From an uncultured virus (IMG/VR IMGVR_UViG_3300017917_005385) (lineage: Duplodnaviria; Heunggongvirae; Uroviricota; Caudoviricetes): a DNA stretch of 64,000 bases. Below, one piece after another: positions 1-52,916 of this stretch. The stretch's first letter is position 1. Each line of letters opens with the position of its first letter. The notes beneath the pieces were generated by a model, which worked only from the letters and a program-made list of their open reading frames with translations, was not told the origin of the DNA and did no database searches. A program made the position numbers and the translations under genes. The DNA lies in the IMG/VR virus record IMGVR_UViG_3300017917_005385, one strand, 5' to 3'.

Positions 1-231
1 ATAAACCCTTTGTCCTGGTTTTACTACTAATCCTGTTTTTGAGATTGATTGACCGTTTAATTTAATATCAGCGAGAACTGAAACGGTTAGTGGGTTAAAT
101 AATTCGATTTCGAACTCGTCTCCATCATTTAAGAAGACTTTCCCATTTTTAATTGATTTTCTCCCTTTGTCTTTAGGAGATACAATCCAAGCTCCTGGCT
201 TGGAATTGCTACTTGCAATTGTTTTTGCCAT
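1..231 (-). CDS. Conserved phage hypothetical protein, N-terminal part (runs off window)
   Basis: Not in ORF track; manual translation from ATG at 231: MAKTIASSNSKPGAWIVSPKDKGRKSIKNGKVFLNDGDEFEIELFNPLTVSVLADIKLNGQSISKTGLVVKPGQRVY, open to the window edge. Confidence 0.75.
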   Translation of the reverse strand, partial: MAKTIASSNSKPGAWIVSPKDKGRKSIKNGKVFLNDGDEFEIELFNPLTVSVLADIKLNGQSISKTGLVVKPGQRVY

Positions 232-9623: not shown

Positions 9624-9989
9624 ATGATTAAAAGATATTTACAATTTATTAAAGAGGCGGATGAGCCAGTAAAAGACAATAACAAATATGTAGAGATGAG
9701 AGATGAAATTAAATCTCTTATTGAGAAAACTATTGAAAAGTCTGGTGGTGAGTTCAAATCATTTGTAGATAAATTTGTTAAATCACCTGAAGATGTTAAA
9801 ATTGAAGGTTTAATAAATGACTCAGATATATATGATTTCTATCTTAAATTTAGAAATGATATTGATGAGTTATTAAATGATATTAAATACTTTGATGAAG
9901 TTCCTAGTGAATCCAACACATTTGGATTATATGATTATATAATAAATGGAACTGAAAAGGCTATTATAGAAGCCGTTAAAATGTTATAA
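9624..9989 (+). CDS. Putative capsid-internal protein (CTS-like N-terminus)
   Basis: True start ATG 9624 MIKRYLQFIKE; TAATATATA 9611-9619. Confidence 0.7.
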   Translation: MIKRYLQFIKEADEPVKDNNKYVEMRDEIKSLIEKTIEKSGGEFKSFVDKFVKSPEDVKIEGLINDSDIYDFYLKFRNDIDELLNDIKYFDEVPSESNTFGLYDYIINGTEKAIIEAVKML

Positions 9990-10422
9990 CATTACTCTTT
10001 TTATTAGACTGTAAAACTTTAACATTATCCAATTTTGGTATTTTTAAACTTAAATCAAAATGATATAAAGTATTTAAAACTAATATTACCTCAAATTTAT
10101 TATACTCTTTTTCTATATTTAAGCAGTTTTTAATAATCTCTTCAAAAGACTTTTTATCTTTCAAAAAATTTATTGTATCAATAACTACATATGATAGTTT
10201 ATTTTGAAATAATCCACCATGGTTTAGAATTTCAAATTCAATATCTGTTAAAAATGTTCCCCTTGGAAAAGCAGTAACTTGAATGTTTTTGTTATTTAAT
10301 TCAAGTGATTTTATTCTTTTATCAAAATCTAAAGCAAAGTACAAAGTCTTTTTAGACTTGTCTATTAGACTAAGTGCTAGATTTGACTTACCAGATTTTG
10401 AATCGCCGTGAATTATTATCAT
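9976..10422 (-). CDS. Short, degenerate RecA/DnaB-fold P-loop protein
   Basis: IIIHGDSKSGKS Walker A, TLYFALD, YVVIDTINFL Walker B; only 148 aa. Confidence 0.6.
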   Translation of the reverse strand: MIIIHGDSKSGKSNLALSLIDKSKKTLYFALDFDKRIKSLELNNKNIQVTAFPRGTFLTDIEFEILNHGGLFQNKLSYVVIDTINFLKDKKSFEEIIKNCLNIEKEYNKFEVILVLNTLYHFDLSLKIPKLDNVKVLQSNKKSNVITF

Positions 10423-20610: not shown

Positions 20611-21081
20611 ATGAAACAGCCAAGTAAAGAAGATTTAATAAAAAAATGGGCACCTATTTTAGGGTCTATGGGTATGACTGGTTCACAATTAGATAATTTA
20701 TCACAGTTAGCCGAAAATCAGTCTAATCAAATATTAGAAGAAGAAAATAAAACTGAAGAGTTTCCAAGTTTATTTCCAATGGCTATGAAAATCTCAGCAA
20801 AAACTATTGGAATGGATTTAGTATCCGTTCAACCAATGACTGGACCAGGTGGAATGTCTGAAGAAGAAAGAAAAAGAATTGAAGCTGAAGTTAAACAAGA
20901 GAATCGTGATTCTAAAATTGACGCTTTAGTAGAAGGAACTGAATACAATGAAAAGAAAGTAGAAGACCATCCTGATTATAGACCTGGTAGTGGCGGTCAA
21001 TTATTTTATATGGATTATACATATGGTTCCACACATAAGAAAACAAGAAGAAGTAAAAAGAAGAAAAATGGCGGTATTTAA
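20611..21081 (+). CDS. Truncated gp23-like major capsid protein fragment with inserted RxxKI tag
   Basis: LIKKWAPIL, PMAMKISAKTIGMDLVSVQPMTGP..GQLFYMDY resemble the gp23 N-terminal half; the insertion contains RDSKIDALV; only 156 aa. Confidence 0.7.
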   Translation: MKQPSKEDLIKKWAPILGSMGMTGSQLDNLSQLAENQSNQILEEENKTEEFPSLFPMAMKISAKTIGMDLVSVQPMTGPGGMSEEERKRIEAEVKQENRDSKIDALVEGTEYNEKKVEDHPDYRPGSGGQLFYMDYTYGSTHKKTRRSKKKKNGGI

Positions 21082-21253
21082 GAGTCCGGGCGTTTTTGTC
21101 AAAGAAGAAGATATAGATATTGTTTATCCAAGGTTTTCTAAAAGATATACAAGAAGGATAAAAATAGGTAAAATATTTTATATAGATGTTCCTAATATTA
21201 TTATAACTTCTACTCCAAAAGGAGGACCCACAAACTTTCCACAAATCTGGTAA
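21068..21253 (+). CDS. Chimeric microprotein: tail-sheath N-terminus + tag + terminase coupling-motif-like peptide
   Basis: Start ATG 21068: MAVFKSPGVFVKEED..RRIKIGKIF..IIITSTPKGGPTNFPQIW. Confidence 0.6.
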   Translation: MAVFKSPGVFVKEEDIDIVYPRFSKRYTRRIKIGKIFYIDVPNIIITSTPKGGPTNFPQIW

Positions 21254-22341: not shown

Positions 22342-24090
22342 ATGCTTATTAGTGAATTAGGAATTAGAGGATTCAAATCTTATGGAAATAACGAACAAAT
22401 CTTAAAATTAAATACTGAAAAAGGAGAATTAATTCTTCTTGTTGGAAATAACGGAGCTGGTAAATCTTCTTTGTTAGATTCCTTCGATTACACACTTTAT
22501 GGTAAAGTTAGAGGTCGTAAAAAGAAATGGGCTACTTTATCAACACTACCAAATAGAATTAACGGTGAACTACTTAATAGAATTAAATTCAATTCTTTAG
22601 GTACTGAAGTAGAAGTTAAAAGAGGTATTTCACCTTCTGTTTTGGAACTTATTGAAAATGGAGTTCCAAATGAAAGAGCCGGTAAAGGAAATATTGACGA
22701 AAAGATTGAAAAGTATATCGGTATGGATATCGAGACTTTTAAATCATTTATTTCAATGTCTATTAACGACTTTAAAAACTTCATCTCACTTTCAAATGAA
22801 GAAAAACAATTACTTCTTGATAAATTATTTAACCTTGAGGTTATCAATATTTTAAATAGTATCTTAAAAGATATTGCTAAGAATAATAAAACCAAAGCCG
22901 CTTCTTTTGATGCTGAAATTAGAACCTTAGATGACTCTATTGCCTCTATTCAAAGGTCTATTGATAAAGCTATTGAAAGACAAAAAGAAGAAGCCAGACT
23001 GGCTTTAGAACGTGAAAAAGAAGATATTCAATCTGAGATTGATAGAATCACAAATGAGATGAATTCCAGAAAAGATGATTATAAGTCTTTGAAGGAAAAA
23101 ATGGATAAAATAAAAGAAAAAGATTCTGAATTAGTTGAAGAGTTAGATAAAGAGAAAAGACAACTCATCAACTGTCAAAATGATATTAAGAATGTTCAAA
23201 GAGAGTTAGACTTATATGATTCTGGTAAATGTCCAACTTGTAAAACAGATTTTGATTCGGTTCACTTTGCTAATTTAAGAACAGCTTTAGAAGAAAAAAA
23301 ATTAGGCTTTGAAAATATTAAAGCTGAGATTGAAGCTAATGTTACTAAAGTAAGAGAAAGACAAACTAAGTTAAAATCTTTATCAGAAACTACAACAACA
23401 GCTTTTAATGATTTAAGTTATTTGTTGAAAAATTATAAATCAGAGATTGATAAATTAACTCAAAAGAAAGCTACTCAAACAGTTCCTGTTAATACTACAC
23501 CTTCAGTTAACATTCAAGAGTTTCAAGATACAATTGAAGAGCTTAAAGAAAAGAAAGTAGTTAGTACTGATAAAATTACTGAATGTAAAGAAAAAGAACT
23601 TTATTATAAAGAGTTGAATAGAATCTTTGGTGAAGATGGTGTTAAGAAGTCAATTATTGCTGGTATTATCAAGCCAATTAATCACTTTATTGCTGAGAAT
23701 ATTAAAAAGATGGGATTGCCATTTGAGGTAAAACTAGACGAGACTTTTACGGCAGAGATTAAACAATTAGGTTCTCAAATTGAACACGATTCTTTATCAA
23801 CTGGTGAAACTAAGAAAGTAAACATTAGTATCTTAATTGCTTACTTGAAATTGATTAGAACTAAACGACATATCAATATTTTGTTCTTAGACGAGGTTTT
23901 TTCATCGATAGATATCGAAGGTATAGATTCTATTTTGACACTCTTAAAATCGTTTGCAAACGATTACAACATTAATATTTTTGTTGTTCACCATGCTATT
24001 TTGAATCAAGAGATGTTTGATAGAATATTGAAGATTAATAAAGAAGTATTCTCATCAATTGAAGAAGTTAATTTAGACTATGGATCTTGA
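22342..24090 (+). CDS. gp46/SbcC/Rad50-like SMC ATPase (recombination nuclease subunit)
   Basis: GFKSY, GNNGAGKS, coiled coil with CPTC zinc hook, LSTGE signature, LFLDEVF, H-loop. Confidence 0.92.
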   Translation: MLISELGIRGFKSYGNNEQILKLNTEKGELILLVGNNGAGKSSLLDSFDYTLYGKVRGRKKKWATLSTLPNRINGELLNRIKFNSLGTEVEVKRGISPSVLELIENGVPNERAGKGNIDEKIEKYIGMDIETFKSFISMSINDFKNFISLSNEEKQLLLDKLFNLEVINILNSILKDIAKNNKTKAASFDAEIRTLDDSIASIQRSIDKAIERQKEEARLALEREKEDIQSEIDRITNEMNSRKDDYKSLKEKMDKIKEKDSELVEELDKEKRQLINCQNDIKNVQRELDLYDSGKCPTCKTDFDSVHFANLRTALEEKKLGFENIKAEIEANVTKVRERQTKLKSLSETTTTAFNDLSYLLKNYKSEIDKLTQKKATQTVPVNTTPSVNIQEFQDTIEELKEKKVVSTDKITECKEKELYYKELNRIFGEDGVKKSIIAGIIKPINHFIAENIKKMGLPFEVKLDETFTAEIKQLGSQIEHDSLSTGETKKVNISILIAYLKLIRTKRHINILFLDEVFSSIDIEGIDSILTLLKSFANDYNINIFVVHHAILNQEMFDRILKINKEVFSSIEEVNLDYGS

Positions 24091-24370
24091 TAATTTAATA
24101 ATTGAGTATTTGAATCTGAGATTAGAAAAGGTTAGGTCTGTTAAAAGGCAAAGTTGGCAAGTAGCTGCAGAGATTAGAGATAAAGAGCGCCTGAAATCAA
24201 AAGAAATATGGCAAATCTTAGCTCCAGGTGGTGAGTTTGTTGATTGGAATACTTGTGATAAAATCATAGATGATTATTGCTTACAAGTTTATAATTGTAG
24301 TACATATGATTATTCACTTTGTGTAAAATCTATAGAAAGAGTGAAAAAGTTAAGAGAGCTAGGTATATGA
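24080..24370 (+). CDS. UVR-domain-like microprotein with C-terminal tag
   Basis: KVRSVKRQSWQVAAEIRDKER resembles the UvrB/ClpC UVR motif; ends RVKKLRELGI. Confidence 0.65.
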   Translation: MDLDNLIIEYLNLRLEKVRSVKRQSWQVAAEIRDKERLKSKEIWQILAPGGEFVDWNTCDKIIDDYCLQVYNCSTYDYSLCVKSIERVKKLRELGI

Positions 24371-36492: not shown

Positions 36493-36523
36493 TTTGATAT
36501 TAAACTTTGATTATTTATATTTG
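36493..36523 (+). promoter_or_regulatory. Bacteroidota sigma70-type promoter
   Basis: TTTG-N19-TATATTTG. Confidence 0.75.
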
Positions 36524-36532
36524 TAAAATATT

Positions 36533-37249
36533 ATGGATAAAAAGAAAGTTTTGATTTTTACTGGTGCTGGAGTATCTGCTGAAAGTGGGGTTGCTACTTT
36601 TAGAACAGGTGATGATGGTCTTTGGTATAATCATAAAGTAGAAGATGTTGCAACCCCTGATGGTTGGCGTAGAGATAAAGAAAAAGTTCTTAATTTCTAC
36701 AATATGAGACGTGCTCAATTAAAAGATGTTGAGCCAAATCTGGCACATAAAATTATAGCTGAATTAGAAAAAGATTTTGATGTTGCTGTTGTTACTCAAA
36801 ACGTAGATAATTTACACGAAAGAGCAGGTTCAACAAACGTTATTCATTTACATGGTGAATTAACAAAAGTTCGTTCAACATTAGATCCTTCATTGGTTTA
36901 TGATTGGACTGAAGATTGTAACTTAGGTGATAAATGCGAGAAAGGTTCTCAATTAAGACCTCATATTGTTTGGTTTGGTGAAAATTTAGATGAAAAAAAT
37001 ACCGACTTAGCTACAGAAGTTGCTATGGATTGTGATTTTTGTGTAATTGTTGGTACTTCAATGCAAGTAGCTCCAGCTAATCAAATTCCATTCTTAACAA
37101 AAAGTAATACTCTTATCTATATTATTGATCCATCTGATATGGATTTTTATATCGATAAACAAAGAAAACCATTTTTAAATCATATTAAAGATGTTGCTTC
37201 TGTTGGTATGGAAAAAGTAAGAAAAGATTTATTAGAAATTATTAAATAA
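36533..37249 (+). CDS. cobB: NAD-dependent protein deacylase (sirtuin, CobB-like)
   Basis: FTGAGVSAESGVATFR, TQNVDNLHERAG, HLHG, LRPHIVWFGE, VGTS. Confidence 0.93.
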   Translation: MDKKKVLIFTGAGVSAESGVATFRTGDDGLWYNHKVEDVATPDGWRRDKEKVLNFYNMRRAQLKDVEPNLAHKIIAELEKDFDVAVVTQNVDNLHERAGSTNVIHLHGELTKVRSTLDPSLVYDWTEDCNLGDKCEKGSQLRPHIVWFGENLDEKNTDLATEVAMDCDFCVIVGTSMQVAPANQIPFLTKSNTLIYIIDPSDMDFYIDKQRKPFLNHIKDVASVGMEKVRKDLLEIIK

Positions 37250-37483: not shown

Positions 37484-38043
37484 TGTCACAGATATCAATT
37501 TTTGATTGGCTTACGGCTTTACTAATAGTCTTGCCTTTATTTGGATTGTTTATATCAATTCCAAGTTTTGTATCTATGTATAAACTTGGATTCAAAGCTT
37601 ATAGACAACAATTGAGACTTTTAAAGATTATGATTAGAAAAGTATCAACAGGTTATAAAATTACACATAATCAGTTATATACATACACTGGTATGAGTAG
37701 TGGACCTCAAACTGTAACTAAATCAGAAACTAGCCACTTCTTTCCAATTTTTGTTGATAAAGAGCATTTATTAATTTTAACAAAGAAAGAAGGCCCTTTC
37801 AATACTCTTTATATTCAATACTCTGAACATAAAAATGATCAATGGTCAAATGATAATGTTGAAATAAAAACATCAAGTTGTTTACTTACTCAACTTCTTA
37901 ATGATAGATTTCAGAAAAAAGTTGATAATCTTATGAAAGAATCTATTCAACTTGATGATGTTAAAAATCTAAATGATTTACTAAATAGTCAAATAACTTC
38001 TATCAAAAGAGAAGAAGTATTAAACTCTATATTAAATGGATAA
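37483..38043 (+). CDS. Membrane-anchored protein with C-terminal tag
   Basis: N-terminal TM; ends KREEVLNSILNG. Confidence 0.7.
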   Translation: MSQISIFDWLTALLIVLPLFGLFISIPSFVSMYKLGFKAYRQQLRLLKIMIRKVSTGYKITHNQLYTYTGMSSGPQTVTKSETSHFFPIFVDKEHLLILTKKEGPFNTLYIQYSEHKNDQWSNDNVEIKTSSCLLTQLLNDRFQKKVDNLMKESIQLDDVKNLNDLLNSQITSIKREEVLNSILNG

Positions 38044-38200
38044 GAAAGATATTATTATAGTTGACCATATTAGTATGATAAGTTCTACTAAAGTGGATGA
38101 AAGTTTATTAGAAAAACTTAACATTCGTGTAAAGAATATTCGCAAGTATAGAGGTAGGATTGAAAGACGAAAAGAAAAAATAAAAAGAATTTATGAATAA
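38036..38200 (+). CDS. 54-aa microprotein: helicase Walker-B-like peptide + tag (not in ORF track)
   Basis: MDKKDIIIVDHISMISSTKVDESLLEKLNIRVKNIRKYRGRIERRKEKIKRIYE; overlaps each neighbour by 8 nt. Confidence 0.65.
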   Translation: MDKKDIIIVDHISMISSTKVDESLLEKLNIRVKNIRKYRGRIERRKEKIKRIYE

Positions 38201-38384
38201 TAGAGACGTTATTGATATCTTTGGACAGTTACTTAATAGTAATAAAGAAATTATGATGTTGAAAGCTAGACAAACTGGTAAGTCAAATGTTGCCTCACAT
38301 TTAATGGATTGGAAAAAACTATATGATAAACATGAAAGAGTAAGATTAAGAAAAGAAACCATAAAACGACTTTTTAATATATAA
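38193..38384 (+). CDS. Microprotein: terminase Walker-A-like peptide + tag
   Basis: IMMLKARQTGKS; ends RKETIKRLFNI. Confidence 0.65.
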   Translation: MNNRDVIDIFGQLLNSNKEIMMLKARQTGKSNVASHLMDWKKLYDKHERVRLRKETIKRLFNI

Positions 38385-38399
38385 TCTTAACAAAAAGAA

Positions 38400-38966
38400 A
38401 TGAATATTATGAATTTACAAGAATTATTGAATAAATGGAGTATTAAATGTGATGTTAATACATTACTTGCTATGTGGAACGAATCTCACAGAGCATATCA
38501 CACTCTAACTCACTTAAATGATTTAATTGACCAAATCAATGAGAATAAATCAAAATATTCTGAAAAAGAATATGAGAAACTAATCATCGCTTCTCTTTTT
38601 CATGATTGTGTTTATGACCCAATGAAAAATGATAATGAGGAAAAATCAGCTGAGTTCTTTGAGTCTTGTTGCGTTGATAAAAATAATTCAGATGTTCAAG
38701 AAATTAAACAAATAATTCTTGATACAAAAACACATGAATCTACTACACCACTTTCTGAATCATTCAACTACTATGATATGAGTATTGTTGAGAGAGATTT
38801 TGACCAATTATTGGAGTGGGAAAATGGTATTCACGAAGAATATAAAGTATATGGTGATGCTTATAAAGAAGGTAGATTAAAATTCCTAGAATCTCTTTTG
38901 GATAAATATCCACATAATACTGATAATTTGATTAAATTAATTGATTGGGTAAAAAATAACTATTAA
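38400..38966 (+). CDS. HD-superfamily metal-dependent hydrolase
   Basis: HRAYHTLTHL, LFHDCVYDP, DNEEKSA, TKTH. Confidence 0.85.
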   Translation: MNIMNLQELLNKWSIKCDVNTLLAMWNESHRAYHTLTHLNDLIDQINENKSKYSEKEYEKLIIASLFHDCVYDPMKNDNEEKSAEFFESCCVDKNNSDVQEIKQIILDTKTHESTTPLSESFNYYDMSIVERDFDQLLEWENGIHEEYKVYGDAYKEGRLKFLESLLDKYPHNTDNLIKLIDWVKNNY

Positions 38967-52502: not shown

Positions 52503-52916
52503 TTAAAAATTTCTTTTGATATTATTTCTAGTCATATAATCTCGAACTCTTGCTGCCTCTTCATACTTTTCTTTTTTGATTAGGTCATCAAGCTTACTAT
52601 TAAGTTCTTTAGTTATTTCTTCTATATTTTTTTCTTTTGAAAGTTGTTTTATATCATCAATAAATGAATTATAGAAGTTTTCCATTTGTGATATATCCAT
52701 AAAATAAACTGGAACAGGCATAGGTAACATCTTTTGTTCAGATGATTTATCCTCTTCTAATTCTTTTAGTTTATCACTATTTTTGATTTTTTTAATAAAA
52801 TCTTCAGTTAATGCAGAATTCTCAACTAAATACTTAGCCAAGTGATAAGGTCTGTTTTTAAACATTTTTAAAAGTATTACTAAACTACGATATAATTCCT
52901 CATTTTCCATATTCAT
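52503..52916 (-). CDS. UVR-domain protein
   Basis: C-terminal LIKKEKYEEAARVRD. Confidence 0.7.
   Translation of the reverse strand: MNMENEELYRSLVILLKMFKNRPYHLAKYLVENSALTEDFIKKIKNSDKLKELEEDKSSEQKMLPMPVPVYFMDISQMENFYNSFIDDIKQLSKEKNIEEITKELNSKLDDLIKKEKYEEAARVRDYMTRNNIKRNF

Follow-up and report, generated by a model that had tools for sequence, protein, structure and literature searches.

A conserved 63-residue phage microprotein with a terminase-like Walker A motif and a shared C-terminal tag

The gene and its operon

The window analysed here is the first 64 kb (64,000 nucleotides) of a 150-kb record of a giant lake phage; the record is 52% complete. The features discussed are collected in Table 1. 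The gene of interest encodes a 63-aa microprotein, which contains IMMLKARQTGKS and ends in RKETIKRLFNI. It belongs to an operon headed by a Sir2-family (sirtuin) gene, and its start is overlapped by the stop of the 54-aa gene before it. The initial annotation described the ORF as a terminase P-loop motif and a tag with no remaining ATPase domain. This description is correct: the motif occurs once in the contig, no ATPase remainder follows the ORF, and the next gene encodes an HD-type phosphohydrolase.

Table 1. Features of the window (positions counted from its first nucleotide)
Feature	Position	Strand	Remarks
Tagged major-capsid N-terminal fragment	20611..21081	+	PF07068 E=1e-4, profile 6-44; phrog_138 E=3e-6
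Tagged microprotein	21068..21253	+	Tail-sheath N-terminal segment, tag and terminase motif III strand IIITSTPKG (likenesses, see text)
TATATTTG promoter element, Bacteroidota-type	36516..36523	+	17 nt upstream of sirtuin start
Sir2-family gene, operon head	36533..37249	+	PF02146 E=7e-44
Two tagged ORFs, 76 and 186 aa	37253..38043	+	Same operon as the 63-aa gene
54-aa tagged microprotein	38036..38200	+	DnaB-like Walker B strand DIIIVDH
84-aa ORF	38108-38362	opposite to 63-aa gene	Treated as a shadow ORF
63-aa microprotein gene	38193..38384	+	ATG start; terminase-like helix, first strand, P-loop and helix, then basic C-terminal tag
KARQTGKS Walker A-like motif	38262..38285	+	Residues 24-31 of the 63-aa protein
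Basic helical tag	38337..38381	+	Residues 49-63; core RKETIKRLF
AATATATA promoter-like motif	38376..38383	+	Covers the last codons and stop of the 63-aa gene
HD-type phosphohydrolase	38400..38966	+	phrog_19425 E=1e-19

When all six frames of the whole 150-kb contig are read, the pattern [AS]RQxGK[ST] is found only in this ORF; its chance expectation in the proteome is 0.0035 and there were 0 matches in 200 shuffles. The KARQxGKS pattern is not diagnostic by itself, as all eight exact nucleotide-pattern matches in viral contigs lie in unrelated ORFs. A sequence search retrieved 143 homologues of the 63-aa protein (34-111 aa) and a profile search 327; the single longer homologue is a read-through into the next small ORF. 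K24, R26, Q27, G29 and W40 are invariant in all 120 aligned homologues, in which position 30, the Walker lysine, is K in 91, R in 28 and G in one. We calculated dN/dS for 42 unique coding sequences (56 loci, less five that had no match or were open-ended or truncated, plus the window). The ratio is lowest over residues 24-31 (0.16), followed by the tag (0.24), and is about 0.5 in the rest of the protein; Ser31 is kept through both TCN and AGT codons.

These results confirm a real, conserved gene in which the motif and the tag are under the strongest selection in the family. They also support conservation of the KARQTGKS motif by selection at the protein level, so the possibility raised in the initial annotation, that the motif might not be conserved among homologous microproteins, does not hold. 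A chance ORF is excluded by the dN/dS values and by the shuffle test of the motif. A guide acting at the DNA level is excluded because synonymous change is free over the motif. The motif persists in distant members of 45-50 aa that lack the N-terminal helix, and its distance from the tag varies between 26 and 31 residues. The AlphaFold2 model of the 63-aa protein has two helices and no strand (pTM 0.38); it is confident over the tag helix only (pLDDT >90), the N-terminal half being of low confidence. One locus (L054:2-385) holds a tandem duplicate, with two successive Walker A microproteins of which the first ends in the tag variant of the neighbouring gene; this suggests module swapping at the tag.

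The gene order is conserved. A tagged Walker-B-like ORF precedes the 63-aa gene in 40 of 52 readable loci and the HD gene follows it in 48 of 50; LR745206 (a 635-kb record) has the same order of Walker-B-like ORF, 63-aa gene and HD gene, and the 63-aa gene is syntenic across related megaphages of 476-635 kb. The 54-aa protein aligns with the Walker B strand of a helicase-like protein of G001 (a 476-kb relative, 97% complete) at a score not above shuffles, and the ESM Atlas returned no family for it.

The element TATATTTG is of a type, TAnnTTTG, that we take to be the Bacteroidota promoter consensus, and in all 23 readable loci TAnnTTTG lies no more than 60 nt from the sirtuin start. In G001 this host-type promoter is found in 18 of 44 tagged operons compared with 48 of 253 untagged ones (p=0.003). 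The phage motif AATATATA shows the converse distribution (4/44 tagged against 98/253 untagged operons; p=6e-5). Because the operon of the 63-aa gene has a host-type promoter, it is likely to be expressed early. AATATATA is a strong motif of the clade, found genome-wide 12-14 or about 28-33 nt upstream of starts; of the 143 TAATATATA sites in G001, 114 are followed by an ORF within 60 nt. The clade shows no enrichment of Shine-Dalgarno motifs. We infer that AATATATA may be a late promoter, and the copy at the end of the 63-aa gene likely drives the HD gene downstream. This copy lies over the stop of the 63-aa gene in 53 of 55 loci; owing to the overlap, the final codons (F-N-I-stop) show no synonymous change, and their invariance need not be protein-level.

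With 6 of the 64 parts of the GTDB collection searched, 77 of the best 80 matches to the sirtuin name Bacteroidota taxa; the host group is probably Bacteroidota. The accessible parts of PMC7162821 and PMC9723777 place the five genomes of more than 634 kb in a Mahaphage clade with predicted Bacteroidetes hosts.

Likeness to the large terminase

The 63-aa protein presents a helix, a hydrophobic strand, RQxGK and a helix in the same order as the Walker A region of the G001 terminase and of T4 gp17. This helix-strand-RQxGK[ST]-helix order is common to it and the T4 gp17-type large terminases (PF03237 Terminase_6N; phrog_2; PDB 2o0h). It corresponds to about 45 residues of a 714-aa enzyme and, unlike the enzyme, carries a tag. 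By alignment with T4 gp17, it holds the first core strand of the terminase ATPase.

Terminase PHROGs are the top match for 8 of 27 distant members (E 0.0012-0.19) and for the orthologue in G002, a further relative (columns 256-323, E=1.1e-4 per genome), while the ESM Atlas places the 63-aa family with Terminase_6N and GpA_ATPase clusters at 0.92-0.93. The match of the window protein to phrog_2 is weak (E=0.045) and out of register, covering profile columns 158-189, whereas the true terminase segment matches the Walker A columns, 264-314. A Pfam search of the window protein gave no match at E<=0.1, nor did a PHROG search of the G001 orthologue at E<=1. The family profile retrieved 38 of 1.84 billion proteins, none of them a full-length terminase, and PDB sequence searches with this profile and three fragments gave nothing relevant. 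The evidence for a terminase origin is cumulative, each piece being weak, and we describe the protein as terminase-like.

Little of the enzyme is kept. The Q motif, Walker B, motif III and the nuclease are absent, and the stop codon is conserved. The catalytic Walker lysine, expected to be invariant in a large terminase, is not so in this family: it was counted in the 171 of 177 short members that fit a motif pattern in which K/N, R and G were fixed by construction, and is K in 128 (including the window copy), R in 30 and A, M, Y, G or S in 13. Since the Q motif, Walker B and nuclease are absent and the Walker lysine is often replaced, the 63-aa protein is, judged by its sequence, non-enzymatic and no ATPase. 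Replacement of the lysine in 43 of 171 members, together with the variable spacing between motif and tag, means that the family preserves neither catalysis nor a rigid fold.

The clade has a terminase of its own. In G001 an intact 714-aa enzyme, 78% identical to those of LR756502 and LR745206, is encoded about 140 kb from the 63-aa orthologue; the part of the genome covered by the window's contig contains no intact terminase. In the best 80 of 605 loci the Walker A of the clade terminase is ASRQVGKT without exception, and the 63-aa motif differs from it in the K at -2 and in the terminal S. Two foreign terminases have K at -2, a cyanophage enzyme has RQTGKS and three others share the downstream W; three of six hand-picked foreign segments outscore the cognate segment against the peptide. 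That the motif combines features of foreign terminases is suggestive only, being drawn from these six hand-picked cases. On these comparisons, the 63-aa protein is not a recent copy of the phage's own terminase. A split or frameshifted terminase is excluded: the HD gene adjoins, and the intact enzyme lies elsewhere in G001. AlphaFold2 models the ATPase domain of the clade terminase with a pLDDT of 36, and a complex prediction of peptide and domain scored 0.00, which gives no verdict either way.

The tag and the tagged set

The end of the 63-aa protein fits R-x-x-K/T-[IL]-x-x-[IL]-[LGF], the pattern used for membership, and represents an F-ending subtype of the tag R-x-x-K-[IL]-x-x-[IL]-[LGF]. 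The latter is found at the end of 95 of the 681 ORFs of G001, against a mean of 1.2 in shuffles, and of 16 of 203 ORFs in the 150-kb contig; it is internal in some proteins. The basic F-ending subtype ends 14 G001 ORFs. These tags are more basic than the common form (net +4.2 against +1.0) and slightly more amphipathic, and to us they recall MinD-type membrane-targeting helices. Larger tagged proteins also occur (for example, a capsid paralogue of 258 aa that matches Gp23 at E=4e-6, and a weakly AAA-like protein whose P-loop is degenerate). A literature search, with most subscription papers outside its reach, found neither the tag nor tagged fragments of core genes described.

Pfam searches of 9 of the 14 F-type tagged G001 ORFs gave four matches to Gp23, at profile positions 132-172, 162-194, 222-260 and 308-347. 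With the capsid fragment of the window (6-44), tagged ORFs tile the T4-type capsid profile in five separate stretches. The T4-type capsid PHROG (E<=0.006) is matched by 3 of the 14 F-type tagged ORFs, compared with a capsid or terminase match in none of 117 other small ORFs (p=0.001); 58 of these have the other tag type and 59 no tag pattern, and four of the 117 were judged by their best five families. The tagged capsid-like ORFs of G001 (L008-L031) are at 73347, 108806, 165780, 297490, 338665, 75553 and 69912; five are short and tile Gp23, and two of about 250 aa resemble partial paralogues (69912 by eye). Local alignments of tagged fragments with 249 G001 proteins are mostly at shuffle level, and a capsid C-terminal fragment is the only one to score above shuffles (57 against a maximum of 49).

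The microprotein at 21068 had been proposed as a second terminase epitope, from motif III. Its ORF is real. Among 249 proteins, one half of its G001 orthologue scores best against a sheath-like protein of 1296 aa and the other against the terminase, in both cases with scores at or close to those of shuffles. By eye, and on our own assumption, other tagged fragments resemble a helicase Walker B strand, a family-B polymerase motif and a gp32 motif; none of these three likenesses passed a statistical test. The polymerase-motif fragment has no Pfam or PHROG match, and its motif is absent from all long G001 ORFs. A 508-aa family-B polymerase ORF (G001:84859-86385) stops just before the fingers motif, and a motif search found no second half in G001; the tagged 56-aa ORF at G001 127466 presumably resembles the missing motif. 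One upstream ORF of 68 aa (L084) combines a gp32-like motif, a Walker-B-like strand and the tag in a single microprotein. Small RecA/DnaB-like ORFs are present in the window (9976-10422, minus strand) and in G001 (77568, 82093 and 211890). Those of G001 are tagged, with a P-loop lacking or degenerate, and the group could possibly represent whole-fold decoys. Taken at the level of sequence, these data place the 63-aa protein in a set of tagged microproteins that cover stretches of core proteins.

Candidate roles

Much is now known about the bacterial sensors of core phage proteins. The initial annotation held that Avs sensors recognize active-site features of the terminase, and the accessible text of PMC13601566 bears this out for SeAvs3, which contacts active-site residues and bound ATP. 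According to the same text, Avs2 buries 2833 A2 of the folded terminase ATPase with a bridging ATP (the accessible part of an Avs2 preprint, 10.64898/2026.08.25.746987, agrees on the bridging), and its non-terminase binders all have a 4-6-stranded sheet. In the portion of PMC13581612 available, an interface that envelops the target fold is described for 12 of the 14 Avs families studied; these are contrasted with the short-motif sensors Lit and CapRel, which set a precedent for capsid sensing through short motifs. Upx is modelled, in the accessible part of PMC13601566, as threading the unfolded terminase strands b1, b4, b5 and b6, possibly of nascent chains; its binding is described there as sequence-independent and the tested homologue comes from the FCB group, which is also the inferred host group here. 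We infer that b1 is the Walker A strand. Upx would be a proposed target of the 63-aa peptide rather than a relative.

The 63-aa protein is neither a terminase nor a known anti-Avs protein. The explanation we favour, tentatively, is that it may act as an early linear-epitope decoy for a host sensor that reads unfolded or nascent terminase and resembles Upx more than Avs. The peptide would be made early, before the real packaging motor, and would expose a terminase segment that is normally buried. It would occupy the sensor without activating it, and the tag might dock to a common partner or to the membrane. The tagged fragments are conserved segments, buried in the terminase case, which points to a reader of unfolded chains. 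In favour of such a decoy, the motif and the tag are the most selected parts while neither catalysis nor fold rigidity is preserved; the motif is non-cognate, the capsid is tiled, and in tagged operons the host-type promoter is enriched and the phage motif depleted. By analogy, the strand threading of Upx and the short-motif recognition by Lit and CapRel are consistent with it. Against it, Upx binding is itself modelled and sequence-independent, yet side chains (K, R, Q, G and S) are what is most conserved; the peptide supplies at most one of the four strands threaded by Upx, and the AlphaFold2 model consists of two helices without a strand. Action on competing phages would suit a motif unlike that of the phage's own terminase equally well, a free epitope could activate the sensor instead of blocking it, and the G001 orthologue has no PHROG match while the family profile finds no full-length terminase. 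A broader form, which we consider possible although on the unlikely side, is a tagged peptide library of the tailed-phage core proteome, made early against all sensors of unfolded or nascent core proteins. Such a library would tile the capsid and copy buried terminase, helicase, polymerase and SSB motifs in a pan-phage consensus, and would saturate sensors or route them to a common sink through the tag; the 63-aa gene would be its terminase Walker A member.

Known systems resemble this arrangement in part. T4 vs.8, Ksap1 and Ksap2 are small or truncated terminase-ATPase-like proteins, proposed as possible anti-defence proteins by their authors (PMC13601566, PMC11564622, accessible text); they retain a whole sheet-containing fold and activate Avs2, whereas the 63-aa peptide has one strand and a tag. 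The Gol peptide of T4 gp23, sensed through the Lit protease (PMC3014915, accessible part), illustrates that a defence system needs no more than a short conserved segment of a core protein for recognition; Gol lies inside a functional capsid protein and triggers defence, whereas here each segment has a tagged gene of its own. Gpi of Vibrio PLE satellites is a small protein acting on phage packaging, but its abstract presents a dedicated TerL-binding inhibitor and makes no mention of a terminase fragment (10.1101/2024.04.22.590561). A literature search found no anti-Upx peptide, no phage report of stand-alone core-protein fragments answering sensors and no named counterpart of the tagged set.

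Several other explanations account for part of the data. The motif might capture a host sensor or chaperone which the tag then delivers to a protease, the membrane or a hub, making the peptide an active adaptor. One tag on 95 of 681 ORFs with unrelated N-terminal parts, its confidently predicted helix and the selection on it argue for this, as does the presence in these phages of a ClpC/A-like ATPase and a ClpS-like gene; we nevertheless regard it as unlikely, since no hub was identified, the tag is internal in some proteins and the Clp link is one of co-occurrence only. Disturbance of the folding or assembly of co-infecting T4-like phages by the tagged fragments, with the 63-aa protein poisoning a foreign motor, is rather more doubtful. 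The resemblance of the motif to foreign terminases rather than that of the clade and its likely early expression are consistent with such a weapon, and a terminase inhibitor, Gpi, exists in a phage satellite (10.1101/2024.04.22.590561, abstract). However, alignment with T4 gp17 puts the copied segment in the ATP pocket and core sheet, off any known subunit interface; one short segment would be a weak dominant-negative, and the foreign comparison covers six hand-picked terminases. Inhibition of the phage's own motor, which the initial annotation had offered as an alternative, fits poorly because the motif is non-cognate and the promoter host-type. It is decidedly unlikely that the gene is a relic, an old terminase piece captured before a tag and a promoter and kept for these while the motif has no function. 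The overlap of the stop with AATATATA, the relaxed dN/dS outside motif and tag and the weak terminase similarity would suit a relic, but the motif is the most constrained part, its Ser31 is preserved through TCN and AGT codons, and it survives in short members that have lost the N-terminal helix.

The Walker A segment of the terminase is buried in the ATPase core. The peptide keeps Walker A residues and SeAvs3 contacts the active site and ATP (PMC13601566, accessible text), so that a competitive decoy for the TPR sensor of Avs1-3, the role first proposed, has some appeal; we nevertheless consider it very unlikely. Avs2 binds the folded ATPase, with its roughly 2830 A2 interface and bridging ATP, and its other binders all have a sheet (PMC13601566, same limits), and most Avs families envelop a fold (PMC13581612, portion available). 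The peptide, modelled as two helices with no sheet (its N-terminal half at low confidence), offers one strand, and in many family members the lysine that binds ATP is missing. Published Avs sensors enclose folded domains, a surface that the peptide cannot rebuild, which makes an anti-Avs role a poor fit. Least probable of all is a minimal nucleotide- or phosphate-binding peptide, possibly paired with the adjacent Walker-B-like one. The two genes overlap and are adjacent in 40 of 52 loci and in LR745206, and K, R, G and S abound in the motif; against this, 13 of 171 members have A, M, Y, G or S in place of the Walker lysine, the Walker B-like strand is helicase-like rather than terminase-like, and both tags are basic.

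If the fragments are decoys, each would mark an epitope read by the host and could serve as bait for unknown Bacteroidota sensors, and the set would test a question posed in the accessible text of PMC13601566, namely whether sensors read terminase while its chain is nascent or unfolded. Even without a decoy role, a tag on about one-seventh of the genes of a half-megabase phage, with core fragments under selection, needs explanation. Candidate partners of the tag include a ClpC/A-like ATPase seemingly without an N-domain (G000:120871-123009), a ClpS-like gene beside the terminase (L004:3492-3776), both labels being presumptive and drawn from sequence, and small UVR-like ORFs in the window (24080-24370 and 52503-52916), one of them tagged. 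At the other end of the protein, many ORFs start with MK[HY][LI]K.F (window 19780, 39731, 50364 and 50822, and many in G000), a peptide that we take to resemble the capsid-targeting sequences of T4 internal proteins.
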